From NCBI GenBank assembly GCA_007120035.1, contig SKON01000005.1:614-64613 (forward strand): a stretch of 64,000 nucleotides of DNA, in the 5' to 3' direction. Under the pieces are notes generated by a model. The model saw nothing but the letters and a program-made list of their open reading frames with translations, ran no database searches and had not been told where the DNA came from. The position numbers were made by a program, and so were the translations under genes. Below are positions 22,523 to 37,711 of this stretch, piece after piece. The first letter of the stretch is position 1; every line of letters starts with the position of its first letter. The DNA comes from Myxococcales bacterium (lineage in GTDB: Bacteria > Myxococcota_A > Bradymonadia > Bradymonadales > Bradymonadaceae).

Positions 22523-24163
22523 ATGAGAGTAGGTGTGACCGAGGGAGAGCGAAATCGCGGCAGCCTGGTCCCCACAGCGGTAATGCTGGGGGGATTGTTG
22601 ATCGGGGTTTCGATCCTGGCAATGAGCGGCTGTGATACGGTGGCTCAGATCGCGTTTCCGGAGCGGCGGTTTCAGGAGATTCGACCCATCGGGGTAATGC
22701 CCACGGGCGGCCAGTGCGATGGGGTGGGCAATCGAGGGTCGCTGCGGATGGTCTTGATGGCCAACGATGGGACACCGATCAAGCCCGGCGAAGATCTCTC
22801 CCTGGCGTCCGTGGATCTGCGGGCCCAGGATCTGAGTTGGAGCGACGGTCGTCTGTACACCTTCCCCGACGAGACCTGTGGCAGTGGCGAGTGTCCTCCG
22901 GCGTTTACGTGCACGGAGTCGACCACGGGTGTCGAGGAGCTCGGCAACCGATGCATGAACACAACGGCTCTGGGCGTGCCTTCGGATCCGGTGTTCGTGG
23001 GCAATGAACCTACCAGTCAAGCCCTGGCGGTGGTGCTCTCCAACGAGGGTCGGTGGCGGGGATGGCTGCCCGACGATCTAGGGACCTACTTCGAGGCCAA
23101 CCCGGACGGAACAGCGGTGGCGGGCGCCTCGGCGGATATTGGTCTGGACGATGGGCGAGCCGGAGACCGTCCGGGAGAGCGATACGGAGCCCTCGATCAG
23201 GCCCGTCAGGTGTGGCAAAACCTGGTGAATAACGTCGTCGAGCCCCAGGGGCGACAGGCCTTCTTTGGGCTGTGGACCTTCGCGGAGACGTCGGCGGAGA
23301 CGACCTCCCATGTGGGCCAGTTGAGCAGCCCCGAACAGCCATCGGTGTGGACCCGTCAGCCTCTCCGGGTAGCGCAGGCGATCCGGCAGGCGGAGGACAC
23401 CAACCCTCAGCGGACCCGGGCTGATGTGTACGCCCGTCTGCAGGACATCCTGGACGAGGGGTTCGGGCCCGACTCCCAGGTCGCCGCGGCGGTGCAGAAC
23501 GTCGAGGATCGGCACCTGGTGCTGATCGTGGGCGGTCCGAACGAGCGACCCCGACCGACCCTGGGGTACCAGGAGGTCGTGAGCGCCGCCCAAGATCTGG
23601 GGGTGACCATCTCGGTGATCCAGGTGGATCCGGCGATGGACAAGGACCTGCTTCGAGACGATCCCCGATACTACGAGACCGCAGCGAGTTGCTCCAGCGA
23701 TGCTGATTGCAAGAACTTCGAGGAGTGTCGTCAGGTGCAGCTCTGGTGCAACGCGTCGTCGGCGCAGTCCTGCAACGACGTGGCGTTCCCGGCGAACCCG
23801 GACAATCAGTACTGCGTCCCCGCCCGGGATGAGAACGGCCGCGTCGGGCCGATCGAAGATTATCAGCTCTTGGCCTGCGAGACCGGCGGCAGCTACTCCT
23901 ACATCCCGACGGTGACGAACAACCTCCTCTTTTCGCGATTGGCCGGGCAGGTGATGTGGCAGGAAGCGGGGTGGGAGGTGGAGATCGATATCAACGAGTC
24001 CGGGAGCTTGATCCCCGGTGAGCCCGCCGCGCTGCAGGGGGCCCTCCAGATCACCCAGGGGCAGACCCAGAGCTACAATTTCTCTCAACGGGGGAGCGTG
24101 TTGGGCACCCCGGGCGACCCATCGAGTTGGGACACCCGGCCGGTGTTCTTCAAGGCGCCCTGA
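22523..24163 (+). CDS. Cys-rich lipoprotein with a vWA-like alpha/beta core lacking a canonical MIDAS motif; first gene of the Glt/Nfs-type locus
   Basis: GAGGAAAGG SD and lipobox AMSGC. vWA-like strand pattern (LAVVLSNEGRW, FFGLWTFAETS, RHLVLIVGGPNE, GVTISVIQVD, ETGGSYSYI). 12 Cys after the lipobox. Confidence 0.7.
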   Translation: MRVGVTEGERNRGSLVPTAVMLGGLLIGVSILAMSGCDTVAQIAFPERRFQEIRPIGVMPTGGQCDGVGNRGSLRMVLMANDGTPIKPGEDLSLASVDLRAQDLSWSDGRLYTFPDETCGSGECPPAFTCTESTTGVEELGNRCMNTTALGVPSDPVFVGNEPTSQALAVVLSNEGRWRGWLPDDLGTYFEANPDGTAVAGASADIGLDDGRAGDRPGERYGALDQARQVWQNLVNNVVEPQGRQAFFGLWTFAETSAETTSHVGQLSSPEQPSVWTRQPLRVAQAIRQAEDTNPQRTRADVYARLQDILDEGFGPDSQVAAAVQNVEDRHLVLIVGGPNERPRPTLGYQEVVSAAQDLGVTISVIQVDPAMDKDLLRDDPRYYETAASCSSDADCKNFEECRQVQLWCNASSAQSCNDVAFPANPDNQYCVPARDENGRVGPIEDYQLLACETGGSYSYIPTVTNNLLFSRLAGQVMWQEAGWEVEIDINESGSLIPGEPAALQGALQITQGQTQSYNFSQRGSVLGTPGDPSSWDTRPVFFKAP

Positions 24164-24218
24164 GACAGTGACGATGACGATCGGAAGTGATCATCGCGGA
24201 TCAACGGAGAACCATACC

Positions 24219-24953
24219 GTGAAAGCCAGACCATGGAAGTTGGGCCTCGTAAGCCTCCTGATGCTGTCCCTCGTAGGCCTGAGCGGGCCTGTGATGGCCC
24301 AGGAGTTGGAGGAAGAGGAAGAGGCGGGCCTGCCGGAGCTCGATGATGACGACCCGATGTACTGGGCGCAGATGCGGGACGTGTACACCATGCAGCGGCG
24401 GGCGTTCCTGAAAGAAGGACGGTTCGCGCTCTCGGCGTACGCCGGCCTGATCCCGAACAACATCTTCGAGCAGTACTTCCCGCTGGGGCTGCGAGCCAAC
24501 TACTACATCCTGGAGAATATCGGGCTGGAGTTGTCGAGCTCCTATGCGTTCCGGCGGTCCACGGACCTGCGCCCGATCCTCACGGAGGACAGCGGGATCA
24601 ACGCCCGAGACGTGTTGATCGGTGACAAGCAGGTCTCCCACACGGTTTTCGGGGTCCAGTGGAGCCCGGCCTACGGGAAGTTTGCCCTCGGAGACTCGGG
24701 GCTCTTCTATTTCGATCTGAACGTCTTCGGCGGCGCCGGGATGGTGGTGGTCCAGACCGAGAGCGACTTCAACGCCCCCCCGGATACGACGGTGAAGCCC
24801 GAAGGGGTGATCGGTGCGGGAGCGGCGATCTTTCTGGGGCAACACGCCGGTCTTCGAGTGGACTTCCGACAGTTCGTCTTCCAGAAGGTGGAGGGCATCG
24901 GTGGGGTAGCCAACCCCTCGGAGGTCTCCGTGGGCTTTAGCTGGTTCTTCTAA
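24219..24953 (+). CDS. Outer-membrane beta-barrel protein, GltA/GltB (NfsA/NfsB)-like, paralogue 1
   Basis: Signal peptide KARPWKLGLVSLLMLSLVGLSGPVMA. Alternating beta-strand pattern. C-terminal SVGFSWFF. GTG at 24219 has a GGAGA SD 8 nt upstream (alternative ATG at 24174). Confidence 0.75.
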   Translation: MKARPWKLGLVSLLMLSLVGLSGPVMAQELEEEEEAGLPELDDDDPMYWAQMRDVYTMQRRAFLKEGRFALSAYAGLIPNNIFEQYFPLGLRANYYILENIGLELSSSYAFRRSTDLRPILTEDSGINARDVLIGDKQVSHTVFGVQWSPAYGKFALGDSGLFYFDLNVFGGAGMVVVQTESDFNAPPDTTVKPEGVIGAGAAIFLGQHAGLRVDFRQFVFQKVEGIGGVANPSEVSVGFSWFF

Positions 24954-24988: not shown

Positions 24989-25753
24989 ATGATCAAGAAG
25001 GCAAAGTGGAGTCTGGCAGCGGCGGCGGCCGTGGCGGTGTGCCTGGGGCTGAGCCTGCCGGCGTCGGCGGAAGAGGGCGGCCTGGACACAGAGCTCGAGC
25101 AGTTCTGGTCAGCCGACAGAGACGTCCGTGTGATCGAGAACCGCCTCTTCGAGCGAGAGGGCCGGTTCGGCGCCGGGCTGTACACGGGGCTTCTGTCCAG
25201 CGATCCCTTCTTCTACTACTTCCCCGTGGGGGTGCGGGCGACCTACCACTTCTCCAACAGCCTGGGGGTGGAAGTGGGGGGAGCGTTCATGGACGCCCCG
25301 TTTTTGACCCATAACACGGAGCTGACGGACTTTCTCCAGGAGAGCCGCCGAGAGAGCTTCAACAGCGCTACGGATACGATGGATCGGTATCTGTGGCGAG
25401 CCAACGCGGTGGCGGTGTGGAGCCCGTTTTACGGGAAGCTGGCGATCCTTCAGCGGAAGCTGGCCCACTTCGACCTGAACGTCGCCGGTGGGCTCGGGAT
25501 GGTGCAGGTGGAGCGTCCCGGGCTGGATACGGCGGGACAGCCGTCGCTCTCGGGGGAGGCGTTCAACCATATCACGATGGAAGTGGTGACCGGGGTGGGG
25601 GCCCATTTCTACATCACAGATTCCCTGCTGGTGCGTCTCGACGGGCGAGGATACCTGTACCGGGGGGCGGAGCTGGTCCACAACACGGACAGCTTCTTTC
25701 GCCAGTTGAAGTTCCCCATGGAGTTCCTGGTGGGAGCGACCTATCTCTTCTGA
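24989..25753 (+). CDS. Outer-membrane beta-barrel protein, GltA/GltB (NfsA/NfsB)-like, paralogue 2
   Basis: Signal peptide ending PASA. Shares the EGRF-x5-Y-x-G barrel start and overall pattern with the upstream gene. Ends LVGATYLF. Confidence 0.8.
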   Translation: MIKKAKWSLAAAAAVAVCLGLSLPASAEEGGLDTELEQFWSADRDVRVIENRLFEREGRFGAGLYTGLLSSDPFFYYFPVGVRATYHFSNSLGVEVGGAFMDAPFLTHNTELTDFLQESRRESFNSATDTMDRYLWRANAVAVWSPFYGKLAILQRKLAHFDLNVAGGLGMVQVERPGLDTAGQPSLSGEAFNHITMEVVTGVGAHFYITDSLLVRLDGRGYLYRGAELVHNTDSFFRQLKFPMEFLVGATYLF

Positions 25754-32792: not shown

Positions 32793-34724
32793 ATGAAAAT
32801 CATTTGCGACAGCTGTGGAGCGAAGTATTCCATCGCCGATGAAAAGGTGCAGGGGAAGGTCTTCAAGATTCGCTGCAAGAAGTGCAGCGAGGTGATCGTC
32901 GTCAAGGGGACCGACGACGGTGGTGGCGGTGGCGGCGGAGATTACGGCTCGGCGTACGGCAACGGAGCCGGGGCGGCTGAGTGGTACGTCGTGATCGATG
33001 GAGAGCGGGACGGCCCGATCACCCCGGAGGAGATCGAAGCCTACTACACGATCGGCAAGTTGGGGCCCGAGACCTTCGTCTGGCGAGATGGGCTCGATGA
33101 TTGGGTGATGTTGAACACCCTGTCGGAGTTTGCTCATCTGACGGCGGACTCCGCCGGTCCGGAAGAGAAGACCATGATCGCCGCCCGATCCCCGGAGCTG
33201 GCGGACTCTCCGATGGCCGCGTCTCCGATGGCCGCGGCACCGGCGGCGGCCTCTCCGGCCGCGACGGCGCTGGGGATGGGAGGTCTGGCGGGGCTGGACG
33301 GTGGCGATGATGAACTGGAAGACTCCACGATGGTGATGGAGTCGGGGCGGTTCGAGGCCGGCCAGTTCGAGGCCCCCGAGGAGGAAAGCCATGCTGCCGT
33401 GGAGAGTGGAAGTTACGGTTCCCTGAGCGGGGCGTCCGGCGGTGCCGGGGCGGCCAACGGAGTCAACAACGGGTATGACTCGGGGTACAGCTCGGGAGGA
33501 ATCGAGGCCAGCGCGGCAAGCACCGATACTGGTGGAATGGACACGGGCGGTGGGTTTGACGCCGGGTATGACTCCGGCAGTGGCTACGATGACGGTGGCT
33601 ACGACGACAGCGATCAGGGGGGGATGTTTGCGGCCTTCGATTCGGGAGACGACTCCGACTACAGTAGCTCGGACTACTCGGCGGACGCCGGTCCCTCGCT
33701 GGAGAGCTCCGGCGGTGATGACCTGGTGGGGGCCCGAAACGATAACAGCGTCCTCTTCAGCCTGAGCAGCGTCGATCAGGTCAAGGCGGTGAGCAAGCCC
33801 GGTGACGGTCAGGCTCAGGGCAACGACAAATCCGGGCTGATCGACATCCAGGCGTTGGCGTCGACCCAGGCGGCCCTGAAAGGGGGAGGCGGCCTCGAGG
33901 ATGACGATGACGCCGACTTCGCGGCCGGAGCGATGAGCGTTCCCGCGTTGATGCCCATGGGTAGCCATAAGAAGAGCAACAATGGGCTGATTATCGGGAT
34001 CTCCATCGGCGGTGGTCTGGTGGTGGTGGCTTTGATCGTTATCGTGGCGGTGCTCTTGCTGAGGGATGGCGACGATCCACAGACTCAGCAGGTGGTGGCC
34101 GTGGCCGAGGAGTCCGAAGAGCCCGAAGAAGAGGAGCTCAGTGAAGAGGAGGCCGCCGAGGCGGAGGCGGCCGCTGAGGCTGCCCGAGCAGCCCTGGAGG
34201 CGGCCGAGGAAGAAGAGGAGGAAGAGGAAGAGGCCGAGCAAGAGGAAGAAGAAGCTCCTCGAGAGACGGCTCGAGCCGAGCGGACCCCCCGGCAGCCCCG
34301 CGGTGACAGTGGTGGGGCAGCGCGGCCACGTCAAGAGAGGCAAGAGACTCGTCAAACCGGCAGCAGTATCGTCGACCAGCTCGACCGGGGGCAGCGGCAA
34401 CAACAACAGCAGCCGGCACAGCAGCAGCAGGCCAGCCGATCGGACCTCCCGGAGAGCTTGAGCCGGAATATGGTGAGCAGCACGATCCGTCGATACAACG
34501 CTCAGATTCGAAGCTGCTCGCAGAATAACCCCGAAGGGGTGAGTGGGCAGGCGACGGTCCGGTTTGTGGTGATGGGCAACGGGTCGGTCTCCTCAGCGTC
34601 GGCTCAGGACGAGTTCTCGGGAACCACGGTGGGGAGCTGTCTGGAAGGAGTCGTGCGGGGGATGCGGTTCCCCGAGACCCAGGATGATCGCCGAACCATC
34701 GCGTTCCCGTTCCCCGTACGTTAA
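32793..34724 (+). CDS. Zinc-ribbon, GYF, single-TM, TonB-C-like (AgmX/PglI C-terminal) protein; GltJ/GltG/NfsG-like
   Basis: MKIICDSCGAKYSI...FKIRCKKCSEVIVV (MJ0042-type CxxC...CxxC). GYF_2-like segment EWYVVIDGERDGPITPEEIEAYYTIGKLGPETFVWRDGLDDWVML. TM segment GLIIGISIGGGLVVVALIVIVAVLLL. C-terminal segment ATVRFVVMGNGSV...VGSCLEGVVRGMRFP. Confidence 0.8.
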   Translation: MKIICDSCGAKYSIADEKVQGKVFKIRCKKCSEVIVVKGTDDGGGGGGGDYGSAYGNGAGAAEWYVVIDGERDGPITPEEIEAYYTIGKLGPETFVWRDGLDDWVMLNTLSEFAHLTADSAGPEEKTMIAARSPELADSPMAASPMAAAPAAASPAATALGMGGLAGLDGGDDELEDSTMVMESGRFEAGQFEAPEEESHAAVESGSYGSLSGASGGAGAANGVNNGYDSGYSSGGIEASAASTDTGGMDTGGGFDAGYDSGSGYDDGGYDDSDQGGMFAAFDSGDDSDYSSSDYSADAGPSLESSGGDDLVGARNDNSVLFSLSSVDQVKAVSKPGDGQAQGNDKSGLIDIQALASTQAALKGGGGLEDDDDADFAAGAMSVPALMPMGSHKKSNNGLIIGISIGGGLVVVALIVIVAVLLLRDGDDPQTQQVVAVAEESEEPEEEELSEEEAAEAEAAAEAARAALEAAEEEEEEEEEAEQEEEEAPRETARAERTPRQPRGDSGGAARPRQERQETRQTGSSIVDQLDRGQRQQQQQPAQQQQASRSDLPESLSRNMVSSTIRRYNAQIRSCSQNNPEGVSGQATVRFVVMGNGSVSSASAQDEFSGTTVGSCLEGVVRGMRFPETQDDRRTIAFPFPVR

Positions 34725-34725
34725 T

Positions 34726-35298
34726 ATGATCCGTACTATTCTCAGCGCGATCGCCGGAAGATCGGCGATCGCGCTCGTCGTTGGGGGACTCCTCGTGGTG
34801 GGCTGTCAGGGGCCCCAGGAAGAGCCGATTCCGTGGGTCCCCGAAGAGGAGGAGAGCTCCAAGGCGTCGACGCAGGAGACGGCGGAGAGCACCGGAGGGC
34901 TGGCCACCCAGGAGGACCCTCAGTTGCCAGGGGGACGTTCCTTGCGGGAGATGGGGCAGGATCTGCAGGCTCGGCAGGGATTCCGGCCGGAGATCACGGG
35001 GGTCCACCTTCGGTATCTGATGGGGGAGTATCGGGAGGTCTGGGAGGTCTGTTACGAAGAGCACGGCGGGGACGAGCGGCCCGAGGTGGTGGTGCATTTC
35101 TCTGTGAGCCCCAACGGGAAGCCCTTTGAAATCCAGGCGGCCGAGGAACTGGCGGGGGGAGAGCTAGCGACTTGTCTGACCGACGCTCTGGCGTCCTATA
35201 CCTTTCCCCCGTTGAACCGAGCGGAGCCGCAAGAGCTGCGGTACATCTTCCGGCCCGAGCCCCCTCAGGCGCTATTCTCCGAGCCCAGAAGGCGTTGA
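34726..35298 (+). CDS. Lipoprotein with an AgmX/PglI-type C-terminal domain, in the GltH/NfsH position
   Basis: Lipobox LLVVGC. The C-terminal segment VVVHFSVSPNGKPF...LATCLTDALASYTFPP parallels the C-terminus of the upstream gene. The start lies 1 nt after the upstream stop. Confidence 0.65.
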   Translation: MIRTILSAIAGRSAIALVVGGLLVVGCQGPQEEPIPWVPEEEESSKASTQETAESTGGLATQEDPQLPGGRSLREMGQDLQARQGFRPEITGVHLRYLMGEYREVWEVCYEEHGGDERPEVVVHFSVSPNGKPFEIQAAEELAGGELATCLTDALASYTFPPLNRAEPQELRYIFRPEPPQALFSEPRRR

Positions 35299-36931: not shown

Positions 36932-37711
36932 ATGACGGAGTCGATGGGAAGAGGGCGAAGGGCGGTGGGGATCTGGGCCGCGGTGTTGGGGCTGCTCTTT
37001 TTCACGGGGTGCGCCATGCTCCAGAATCCCGAGAATGAGGATCAGAAGCAAGCCGAGTGGCACTACGAGATGGGGATGGGGTATTTCGAAGCCAATGACA
37101 CGACCCACGCGATCCGGGAGCTGACCCGGGCGTTGGAGTTGAACCCCGATCACAGCCAGGCCCACTACTTGATGGGGTTTATCTACATGGGTCGGCGGGA
37201 TTACACCCGGTCGATCCATCACTTTCGAGAGACCCTGAGGGTGGATCCAAATTACTACTTCGCCCAGAACAACCTGGGGACCGTGTATCTGGCGATGGAG
37301 CGGTGGGAAGACGCCGCGGAGCTCTTCGCGGAGCTTCTGGAGAGGCCGCTGTACACCACGCCGGAGCTGGCCCATAACAACCTGGGGTGGGCCTACTTCA
37401 AGATGGGGCGCCACGCCGAGGCCCTGGAGCACCTGCGGATGGCCGTGTTCTTGTCCCCCGATATGTGCCTGGCGGACAACAATATGGGGCAGGTCTACGA
37501 GGAGATGGGCAACCGATCCGACGCGGCCCGGTATTATCGGCGAGCCATCGAGAAGTGCCCGCGAAACTATCAGGAGCCTCACTTTCGGTTGGGGAGGCTC
37601 CTGCAGGAGCAGGGCGACCCCAACGCGGCGGCGCATTTTCGGCGGTGCATTGAGATCCAGTCCCGCAGCGATCTGGCCGAGCGGTGTCGGCAGTATCTGA
37701 GCGTGAACTAG
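36932..37711 (+). CDS. TPR lipoprotein resembling the type IV pilus secretin assembly factor PilF/PilW/Tgl
   Basis: Lipobox FFTGC. About 6 TPR units, including LYTTPELAHNNLGWAYFKMG, and a C-terminal Cys pair (CIEIQ...ERC). Size is about 250 aa, as in PilF/Tgl. Confidence 0.6.
   Translation: MTESMGRGRRAVGIWAAVLGLLFFTGCAMLQNPENEDQKQAEWHYEMGMGYFEANDTTHAIRELTRALELNPDHSQAHYLMGFIYMGRRDYTRSIHHFRETLRVDPNYYFAQNNLGTVYLAMERWEDAAELFAELLERPLYTTPELAHNNLGWAYFKMGRHAEALEHLRMAVFLSPDMCLADNNMGQVYEEMGNRSDAARYYRRAIEKCPRNYQEPHFRLGRLLQEQGDPNAAAHFRRCIEIQSRSDLAERCRQYLSVN

Follow-up and report, generated by a model that had tools for sequence, protein, structure and literature searches.

In Myxococcus xanthus, one motor serves both the Glt and the Nfs machinery, and inner-membrane anchors with an AgmX/PglI-type tail are found in both. 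GltJ (AgmX, MXAN_4862) consists, in this order, of an MJ0042-type zinc ribbon (ZnR), a GYF domain, a long disordered cytoplasmic region, one transmembrane (TM) helix, a disordered periplasmic spacer and an AgmX/PglI tail that resembles the C-terminal domain (CTD) of TonB. The sporulation machinery NfsA-H is encoded by a single operon of one or more barrel genes, genes for C, D, E and F, and a gene for an inner-membrane anchor with the same type of tail. Here we describe a gene in a window of 64,000 nucleotides (the whole stretch of DNA that was analysed: positions 614 to 64,613 of contig SKON01000005.1, assembly GCA_007120035.1, from a Myxococcales bacterium of the Bradymonadaceae) whose product has the same order of parts as GltJ and whose operon is arranged like the nfs genes. 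This protein, hereafter the anchor, probably serves a Glt-like trans-envelope machine as its dedicated anchor in the inner membrane, with a present layout of genes that is specific to the class Bradymonadia.

The anchor is a bitopic protein with the ZnR, the GYF domain and about 280 amino acids (aa) of disorder in the cytoplasm, the disordered part holding five conserved short motifs, and with a helical, low-complexity periplasmic spacer and a TonB-CTD-like tail after the TM helix (Table 1). An earlier note, made from the sequence of the window, had proposed a CxxC...CxxC ribbon of the MJ0042 type followed by a GYF_2 domain, and both were recovered above the profile cut-offs: Zn_ribbon_4 of Pfam at residues 1-35 (46 bits, cut-off 30.3), TIGR02098 MJ0042_CXXC of NCBIfam (28.3 bits, cut-off 20.9) and GYF_2 of Pfam at residues 64-113 (53.1 bits, cut-off 25.8). 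The sequence also matched the solved domains of M. xanthus GltJ, with E-values of 9e-11 for the GYF domain (7z3c) and 6e-7 for the ZnR (7zok). In an AlphaFold2 model built on 50 orthologues, the predicted LDDT (pLDDT; LDDT, local distance difference test) score was about 80-86 for the ribbon, 88-95 for the GYF domain and 95-98 for the tail, helices were predicted at residues 397-423 (TM) and 451-483 (periplasmic), and the score outside the folded parts was below 50. The single TM helix that the note had read agrees with this model and with the best Kyte-Doolittle window (3.16), and the HKK just before the helix fits an N-in topology. Foldseek matched the GYF domain to 7z3c with a probability of 1.0 and the ribbon to the zinc finger of ZitP (2nb9) with a probability of 0.90. 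For the tail, it returned a coherent series of CTDs of TonB, TolA, FusB and HasB (probability 0.84-0.99) with E-values of only about 1e-2, which are weak because the whole 643-aa model was the query; the TonB-CTD-like fold is assigned from the consistency of this hit list together with NF033768 AgmX/PglI of NCBIfam (residues 556-640, 46.4 bits, cut-off 40), not from any single E-value. Pfam TonB_C (PF03544) did not match the anchor. By composition, the E-rich and Q-rich blocks of the note correspond to an E9 stretch (472-480) and to runs of Q (536-546); its D/G/S/Y-rich tract is present, but the strictly rich part is about 113 aa long (200-312, 66% DGSY) within about 195 aa of disorder, rather than about 230 aa.

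Compared to GltJ, the anchor and its operon show several differences. First, the Gly-rich linker between ZnR and GYF is 21-25 aa long in the anchor and about 95 aa in GltJ, and the mapped stretch of GltJ that binds MglA-GTP and the ZnR is not in place; the linker spans 21-35 aa in all Bradymonadia orthologues versus 104-174 aa in GltJ of the Myxococcaceae. Second, the periplasmic spacer is E/Q-rich in the anchor and Pro/Ala-rich in GltJ. Third, the anchor gene follows a gltF-like gene, whereas gltJ follows gltI in the G1 cluster. Fourth, the operon has no GltG, GltH or GltK, and its D and C proteins are not Glt orthologues. Compared to the Nfs machinery, which uses a GltG-like anchor as the earlier note had stated, the difference is in the cytoplasmic module: NfsG (L071/L084) carries an FHA domain, whereas the anchor carries ZnR and GYF and has no FHA match. 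Furthermore, NfsH has no counterpart in the operon, and an extra Cys-rich lipoprotein heads it. The FHA anchors of the GltG/PglI type and the "core complex" that is linked to a motor in the M. xanthus G4 cluster, reportedly described by Luciano et al. in 2011, resemble the anchor in the family of their C-terminal tail and in being associated with C-D-E-F genes, but the anchor has no FHA domain and its cluster no motor gene, and the GltG equivalog model gave no match to the anchor at E<=0.1. Among more general parallels, ZitP of Caulobacter uses the same zinc-ribbon fold in a cytoplasmic adaptor at its N-terminus, with a membrane segment after it, but it binds PopZ and lacks a GYF domain and a TonB-like tail; no PopZ-type partner is implied for the anchor. 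TonB and TolA have the same C-terminal fold class and, like the anchor, are bitopic and N-in with a long periplasmic spacer. Unlike them, the anchor has an E/A/Q-rich spacer instead of a Pro-rich rod, no SHLS-type TM motif, and a cytoplasmic part of about 400 aa with signalling domains.

The operon consists of genes for a lipoprotein, two barrels, GltC-like, GltD-like, GltE-like and GltF-like proteins and the anchor, in this order, on one strand and with short gaps or overlaps. The homologues that carry a name come from Lujinxingia, Persicimonas and metagenome-assembled genomes (MAGs) of the Bradymonadaceae, which places the genome among the Bradymonadia. L. sediminis keeps the order lipoprotein-A/B-A/B-C-D-E-F-J, as do two MAGs (33-37% identity), the complete genome G015 from the same family and G039, which represents another family of the class Bradymonadia. 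All nine sampled Bradymonadia genomes have a ZnR-GYF start at a distance of 1.7-2.3 kb downstream of the D orthologue, with the anchor gene fixed directly after the gltF-like gene, across two families and down to 33% identity. Among the Myxococcota genomes sampled for D, those of one genus (G008, G021 and G033) are reported to have one in-frame TGA inside the matched frame of the D orthologue.

For comparison, the Glt G1, G2, Nfs, G4 and G5 clusters were located in Myxococcus genomes; 51 Myxococcota genomes were sampled with the operon's GltD, and about 45 loci were annotated by local hidden Markov models (HMMs). The clusters follow three layouts. The first, (A/B)-C-D-E-F-G(FHA)-(H), includes Glt, Nfs and a further cluster of the present genome on contig C342. 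The second is A/B-C-D-E-F; in Bradymonadia it includes the ZnR-GYF anchor, and in several other families it lacks an anchor gene. The third, C-D-E-F-MotA-ExbD-ExbD, is followed by a tail-only anchor. In the maximum-likelihood tree of GltD, three clades correspond to the three layouts, each with a Shimodaira-Hasegawa-like approximate likelihood ratio test (SH-aLRT) support of at least 99. The GltD-like protein of the operon lies in clade 2 (SH-aLRT 100), apart from GltD and NfsD, and the GltC tree contains the same clade of 13 rows (SH-aLRT 99) with the GltC-like protein of the operon. In both trees NfsD and NfsC group with GltD and GltC in clade 1, and Myxococcus has no member of clade 2. These trees show that D and C of the operon belong to a third clade, which is distinct from the Glt/Nfs clade and from the clade of the motor-linked core complex.

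The same trees bear on the idea that the operon encodes an Nfs-type machine for the transport of a polymer or spore coat, in which the FHA anchor was swapped for a ZnR-GYF anchor. The A/B-A/B-C-D-E-F-anchor order does match nfsA-G, and phmmer scored the GltD-like protein higher against NfsD (294 bits) than against GltD (239 bits). The Nfs orthology that these scores favoured was rejected by the D and C trees; since D and C of the operon lie outside the Glt/Nfs clade, the Nfs-like order pointed out in the earlier note stands as a shared layout and not as orthology. No GltH/NfsH homologue was found in the anchor cluster with HMMs, and the clade-1 cluster of this genome is the one on C342. Bradymonadales are not known to sporulate. 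Collectively, these observations make a machine of the Nfs type very improbable.

A different question is whether the anchor is itself a GltJ. The earlier note had recognized a GltJ-type module, and the architecture agrees with it: the anchor and M. xanthus GltJ are reciprocal best hits, and the top whole-protein NCBIfam match of the anchor is NF033761 gliding_GltJ, at 147.5 bits and under the equivalog cut-off of 450. Orthology did not follow. A tree was built from the three concatenated domains (195 columns) of 45 ZnR-GYF-tail proteins. In it, the in-cluster anchors of Bradymonadia fall together (93/93) with stand-alone proteins from other families that also have a short linker, and GltJ of the Myxococcaceae is placed elsewhere. 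Forcing the Bradymonadia anchors and GltJ together costs 21.9 log-likelihood units, with p=0.021 in the approximately unbiased (AU) test for a group that was named after the tree had been seen. This result disfavours an exclusive kinship of the anchor with GltJ.

ZnR-GYF proteins were found in 44 of the 51 sampled Myxococcota genomes, and most of them stand alone. In other lineages, J-like genes of this kind are linked to Glt genes in varied positions: after a GltI-like giant, as in Myxococcus, in G005 (L156) and G044 (L160); directly upstream of two GltA/B-like barrels in G024 (L158) and G048 (L151); about 4.5 kb upstream of A/B-C-D in G014 (L145); and divergent from a clade-3, motor-type cluster in G018 (L095). 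Such linkage supports a real functional tie of the anchor family to Glt-type machines and repeated recruitment, and the hybrid design that the earlier note had suggested, taken as recruitment of a ZnR-GYF anchor, is compatible with the data. The linkage also bears on the view that the anchor is a general-purpose ZnR-GYF TM adaptor of the AgmX/PglI-tail family, merely located beside Glt-like genes and serving another process. That view draws on the wide and mostly solitary occurrence of these proteins, on a second one outside any cluster of this genome (on contig C183), on a sister group in the tree that is "solo" and partly found in genomes without GltD, and on the description of ZnR+GYF as a widespread switch module by Attia et al. 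It does not account well for the strict position of the anchor gene, on the same strand and 88 bp after the gltF-like gene in nine of nine Bradymonadia genomes, nor for the J-like genes of other lineages that are independently linked with GltA/B, GltI or C-D clusters, and we consider it quite unlikely. The reading of the anchor as a dedicated part of a Glt-like machine fits both of these observations.

The cytoplasmic region of the anchor carries several conserved motifs. In the disordered tract, EDSTMV (176-181) and GGMFAAFDSG (276-285) are conserved across 76 orthologues. The juxtamembrane region carries RNDNSVLFSLSS, SGLIDIQALAS and DF..G.MS.PALMPMG, and R315, N318-L324, S347-D351, P384, P388 and G390 are invariant in 50 anchor orthologues. 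The earlier note had assigned MglA docking in M. xanthus to the ZnR+GYF pair of GltJ. This assignment needs correction: Attia et al. (2024, PMC11135422) showed that MglA-GTP is bound by the 95-aa linker of GltJ (L86-T107) and not by the ZnR or the GYF domain, that the GYF domain binds a proline-rich segment of AglZ, and that the ZnR binds the linker or MglB. The MglA-binding stretch of GltJ starts with GG[LMIV]F, which is found in 4/5 GltJ proteins, in 4/6 in-cluster anchors and in only 2/34 other family members; in the in-cluster anchors, it is located after the GYF domain. In the anchor itself it is the GGMF at residues 276-279, within the conserved GGMFAAFDSG. In addition, the near-invariant SGLIDI of the anchor orthologues resembles S.LLDV/SGLLDV of GltJ. 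As resemblances between short motifs, GGMF and SGLIDI are leads and not evidence of binding. Control of the anchor by MglA is possible but unproven, and we consider it less likely than not.

These data can be set against the proposal that the anchor is a true orthologue of GltJ and its operon the Bradymonadia equivalent of Agl-Glt, with switching by MglA-GTP and MglB through ZnR, linker and GYF as in Myxococcus. This proposal would explain the reciprocal best hit, the GYF and ZnR of GltJ as the best matches in the PDB, NF033761 as the top NCBIfam match, the presence of MglA, MglB and GltI-like proteins in the genome, and the GG[LM]F and SGLIDI/S.LLDV motifs. It is at odds with a score of about one third of the equivalog cut-off (147.5 versus 450 bits), with a linker of 21-25 aa instead of about 95-174 aa, with the lack of the L86-T107 motif between ZnR and GYF, with a J tree that groups the anchor with other subfamilies (AU p=0.021), and with the placement of D and C outside the Glt clade. 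The gene context is F-J and not I-J, and AglZ was not found by a heuristic search. Taken together, these points make the proposal unlikely.

The genome encodes several other components that a Glt-like machine might use. A single mglB-mglA pair is present, with identities of 50% and 67% to the pair of Myxococcus sp. Y35; NCBIfam gave no family for the MglA candidate, and its identity is confirmed by the 67% identity to the MglA encoded beside mglB in that strain. The MglA homologue that the earlier note had called for is therefore present, together with the ribbon and GYF profiles. In Myxococcus sp. Y35 (L085, 5763001-5783000), mglB-mglA is directly followed, on its own strand, by a cluster of the G4 type that comprises a gene of 234 aa followed by C-like, D-like and F-like genes and a tail-only anchor. 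Two giant tetratricopeptide repeat (TPR) proteins resemble GltI, at C141:94-11292 (3732 aa) and C173:12664-24330 (3888 aa); they match the C-terminus of GltI with 813 and 433 bits, respectively, and are both unlinked to any Glt cluster. The second Glt-like cluster, at C342:75035-87251, has the order C-D-E-G(FHA)-F-G(FHA)-TPR. Its two GltG paralogues of 641 and 660 aa, tandem FHA+TM+tail proteins, include a reciprocal best hit of M. xanthus GltG (the second G), and its D and C belong to the Glt/Nfs clade. A third cluster, at C145:22169-29809, has D-E-MotA-ExbD and then a tail-only anchor of 465 aa, and is cut by the end of the contig. It corresponds to the M. xanthus G4 cluster and carries an AglRQS-like MotA/ExbD set. 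The same three D paralogues are present in 8/8 sampled genomes of the family. Outside any Glt cluster, a second ZnR+GYF+TM+tail protein is encoded at C183:74600-76558 on the reverse strand; it has about 620 aa when counted from MKFYC, and it and a second ZnR-GYF-tail protein of M. xanthus (L079) are reciprocal best hits. The genome also encodes a kinase+GYF+tail protein (C207) and a kinase+tail protein (C77).

By analogy with the M. xanthus system, the following mechanism may be proposed for the anchor. An AlphaFold model of GltJ docks its tail on the N-terminal domain of GltD (PMC11761067), and the tail of the anchor may likewise dock on the GltD-like scaffold of the operon, at its N-terminal domain; it would thus hold the periplasmic D/C/E/F-barrel complex. 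The cytoplasmic region of ZnR, GYF and motifs would recruit polarity or scaffold partners, the candidates being MglB through the ZnR, MglA-GTP possibly through the relocated GGMF, and the two GltI-like giants through the GYF domain. The anchor would thereby couple the outer-membrane and periplasmic A/B-C-D-E-F complex to cell polarity. The AglRQS-like MotA/ExbD set of the C145 cluster would probably provide the energy in trans. The likely output would be surface gliding, as shown by cultured Bradymonadales; gliding was reported for Persicimonas, Bradymonas and Lujinxingia (PMC7188933), and the Bradymonadales literature that was searched does not mention Glt-type genes.

Several observations weigh against the anchor as the dedicated part of such a machine or against its proposed regulation. 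First, the MglA-binding linker of GltJ is absent from its usual place in the anchor. When the 76 orthologues of the anchor were searched with an HMM made from the linker of 35 GltJ orthologues (residues 78-112), nothing significant came up, with best scores of 0-2 bits, and homology to the MglA-binding stretch of GltJ is not claimed. Second, the proteins nearest to the anchor in the J tree are encoded by genes that stand alone, some of them in genomes without GltD (G004, G012 and G019), which indicates that the anchor family can work without a Glt machine. Third, a heuristic search of this assembly, which is 93% complete, for REC combined with a long coiled coil turned up no AglZ-like protein; the only long REC protein (C232, 1021 aa) was rejected as AglZ, as it consists of REC, a PATAN-like domain, a TM segment and TPR. 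Fourth, the contact with the motor in M. xanthus is made by GltG and not by GltJ (PMC11761067), and the operon has no G. Finally, the trees are unrooted, were built with LG+G4 only and contain several rows of skewed composition; because they are unrooted, the ancestral design that the earlier note had considered cannot be judged from them.

A broader interpretation is offered only tentatively. The operon may represent a third lineage of Glt-like machines in Bradymonadia that took a ZnR-GYF anchor from a family independent of Glt. This anchor would be the sole inner-membrane subunit dedicated to the machine, as the operon encodes no motor coupler of the FHA type; the machine may be the gliding engine of these predators, with input from MglA/MglB through a GTPase-binding motif located after the GYF domain.

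The remaining genes of the operon are listed in Table 1. The Cys-rich lipoprotein at its head has no Pfam or NCBIfam match, and an HMM built for it matches the first cluster gene of L. sediminis (L010, 162 bits) and of G015 (L089, 194 bits). Its conservation as the first gene thus extends to both of these genomes, and weakly to G039. This lipoprotein could be an adhesin or an outer-membrane partner of the machine. The best Myxococcus match of both barrels is GltA, with 52.6 bits for barrel 1 and 53.8 bits for barrel 2, and the true start of barrel 1 is probably downstream of the longest open reading frame (ORF) start. The start of the GltE-like gene overlaps the stop of the GltD-like gene, and a GltF-like gene occupies the same position in all Bradymonadia loci examined. 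A scan for promoters and terminators around the anchor gene was uninformative.

The earlier note had also seen the TonB-C-like domain recur in the gene after the anchor gene. The domain is present in the anchor, in profile and in fold; its recurrence is weak, as the orphan ORF that follows scored 17.5 bits against the NF033768 tail model (cut-off 40, E 0.003). Searches of 25 genomes from the same family gave no homologue of this ORF, and it is absent from the syntenic site in relatives, where an NFACT gene comes directly after the anchor gene. It was rejected as GltH/NfsH, with no match to the NfsH HMM, no homologues and its absence at the syntenic site, and it is not a conserved part of the cluster. 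Further downstream, positions 36932-37711 of the window encode a Tgl/PilW-like TPR lipoprotein (NF033762, 147 bits, below the cut-off), which follows an NFACT/RqcH-like gene also in L010, L081 and L089 and is syntenic family-wide.

Table 1. Genes of the operon, parts of the anchor and the following ORF, with positions in the window
Feature	Position	Strand	Basis
Cys-rich lipoprotein, 546 aa, head gene of conserved cluster	22523..24163	+	lipobox; own HMM
GltA/B-like outer-membrane beta-barrel 1	24018..24953	+	TIGR04565 OMP_myx_plus 82 bits (cut-off 60); Pfam OMP_b-brl
GltA/B-like outer-membrane beta-barrel 2	24989..25753	+	TIGR04565 84.5 bits
GltC-like TPR protein, 644 aa	25797..27731	+	NF033756 gliding_GltC 193 bits, under 450 cut-off
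GltD-like large TPR scaffold, 1137 aa	27716..31129	+	TPR matches
GltE-like TPR lipoprotein, 411 aa	31126..32361	+	NF033758 gliding_GltE 122.8 bits, under 225 cut-off
GltF/CglF-like small exported protein, 86 aa	32444..32704	+	NF033764 gliding_CglF 34 bits, under 90 cut-off
Inner-membrane anchor gene	32793-34724	+	ORF, 643 aa
MJ0042-type zinc ribbon, anchor residues 1-38	32793..32906	+	C5, C8, C28, C31; Pfam, NCBIfam, 7zok match
Gly-rich short linker, anchor residues 39-63	32907..32981	+	48% Gly
GYF_2 domain, anchor residues 64-116	32982..33140	+	Pfam; 7z3c match, 44 bits; AlphaFold2; Foldseek
Disordered cytoplasmic tract, anchor residues 117-312	33141..33728	+	A/P/E-rich, then D/G/S/Y-rich; pLDDT <50
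Juxtamembrane region, anchor residues 313-397	33729..33983	+	near-invariant short motifs
Single TM helix (N-in, C-out), anchor residues 398-423	33984..34061	+	Kyte-Doolittle, AlphaFold2
Periplasmic spacer, anchor residues 424-555	34062..34457	+	E/A-rich helix (451-483), E9 run, Q-rich block
AgmX/PglI C-terminal domain, anchor residues 556-643 and stop	34458..34724	+	TonB/TolA-CTD-like fold; NF033768
Orphan ORF, possible lipoprotein from M15	34684..35298	+	tail model weak

These results have several implications for the biology of Glt-like machines. In M. xanthus, the roles of the anchors are entangled, with GltG in contact with the AglRQS motor and GltJ with the MglA/AglZ platform. An operon with a J-type anchor only, found in cultivable gliding predators such as Lujinxingia, Bradymonas and Persicimonas, is a simpler system. 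It could reveal the function of a J-type anchor that acts alone, and could tell if the MglA switch is older than the Myxococcaceae. The 2011 scenario of Luciano et al. is revised in that Glt-linked J-type anchors exist outside the classical Myxococcales. Myxococcota have at least three D/C lineages, one of which is absent from Myxococcus, and linkage of ZnR-GYF-tail genes to Glt genes has arisen several times, at positions that differ.

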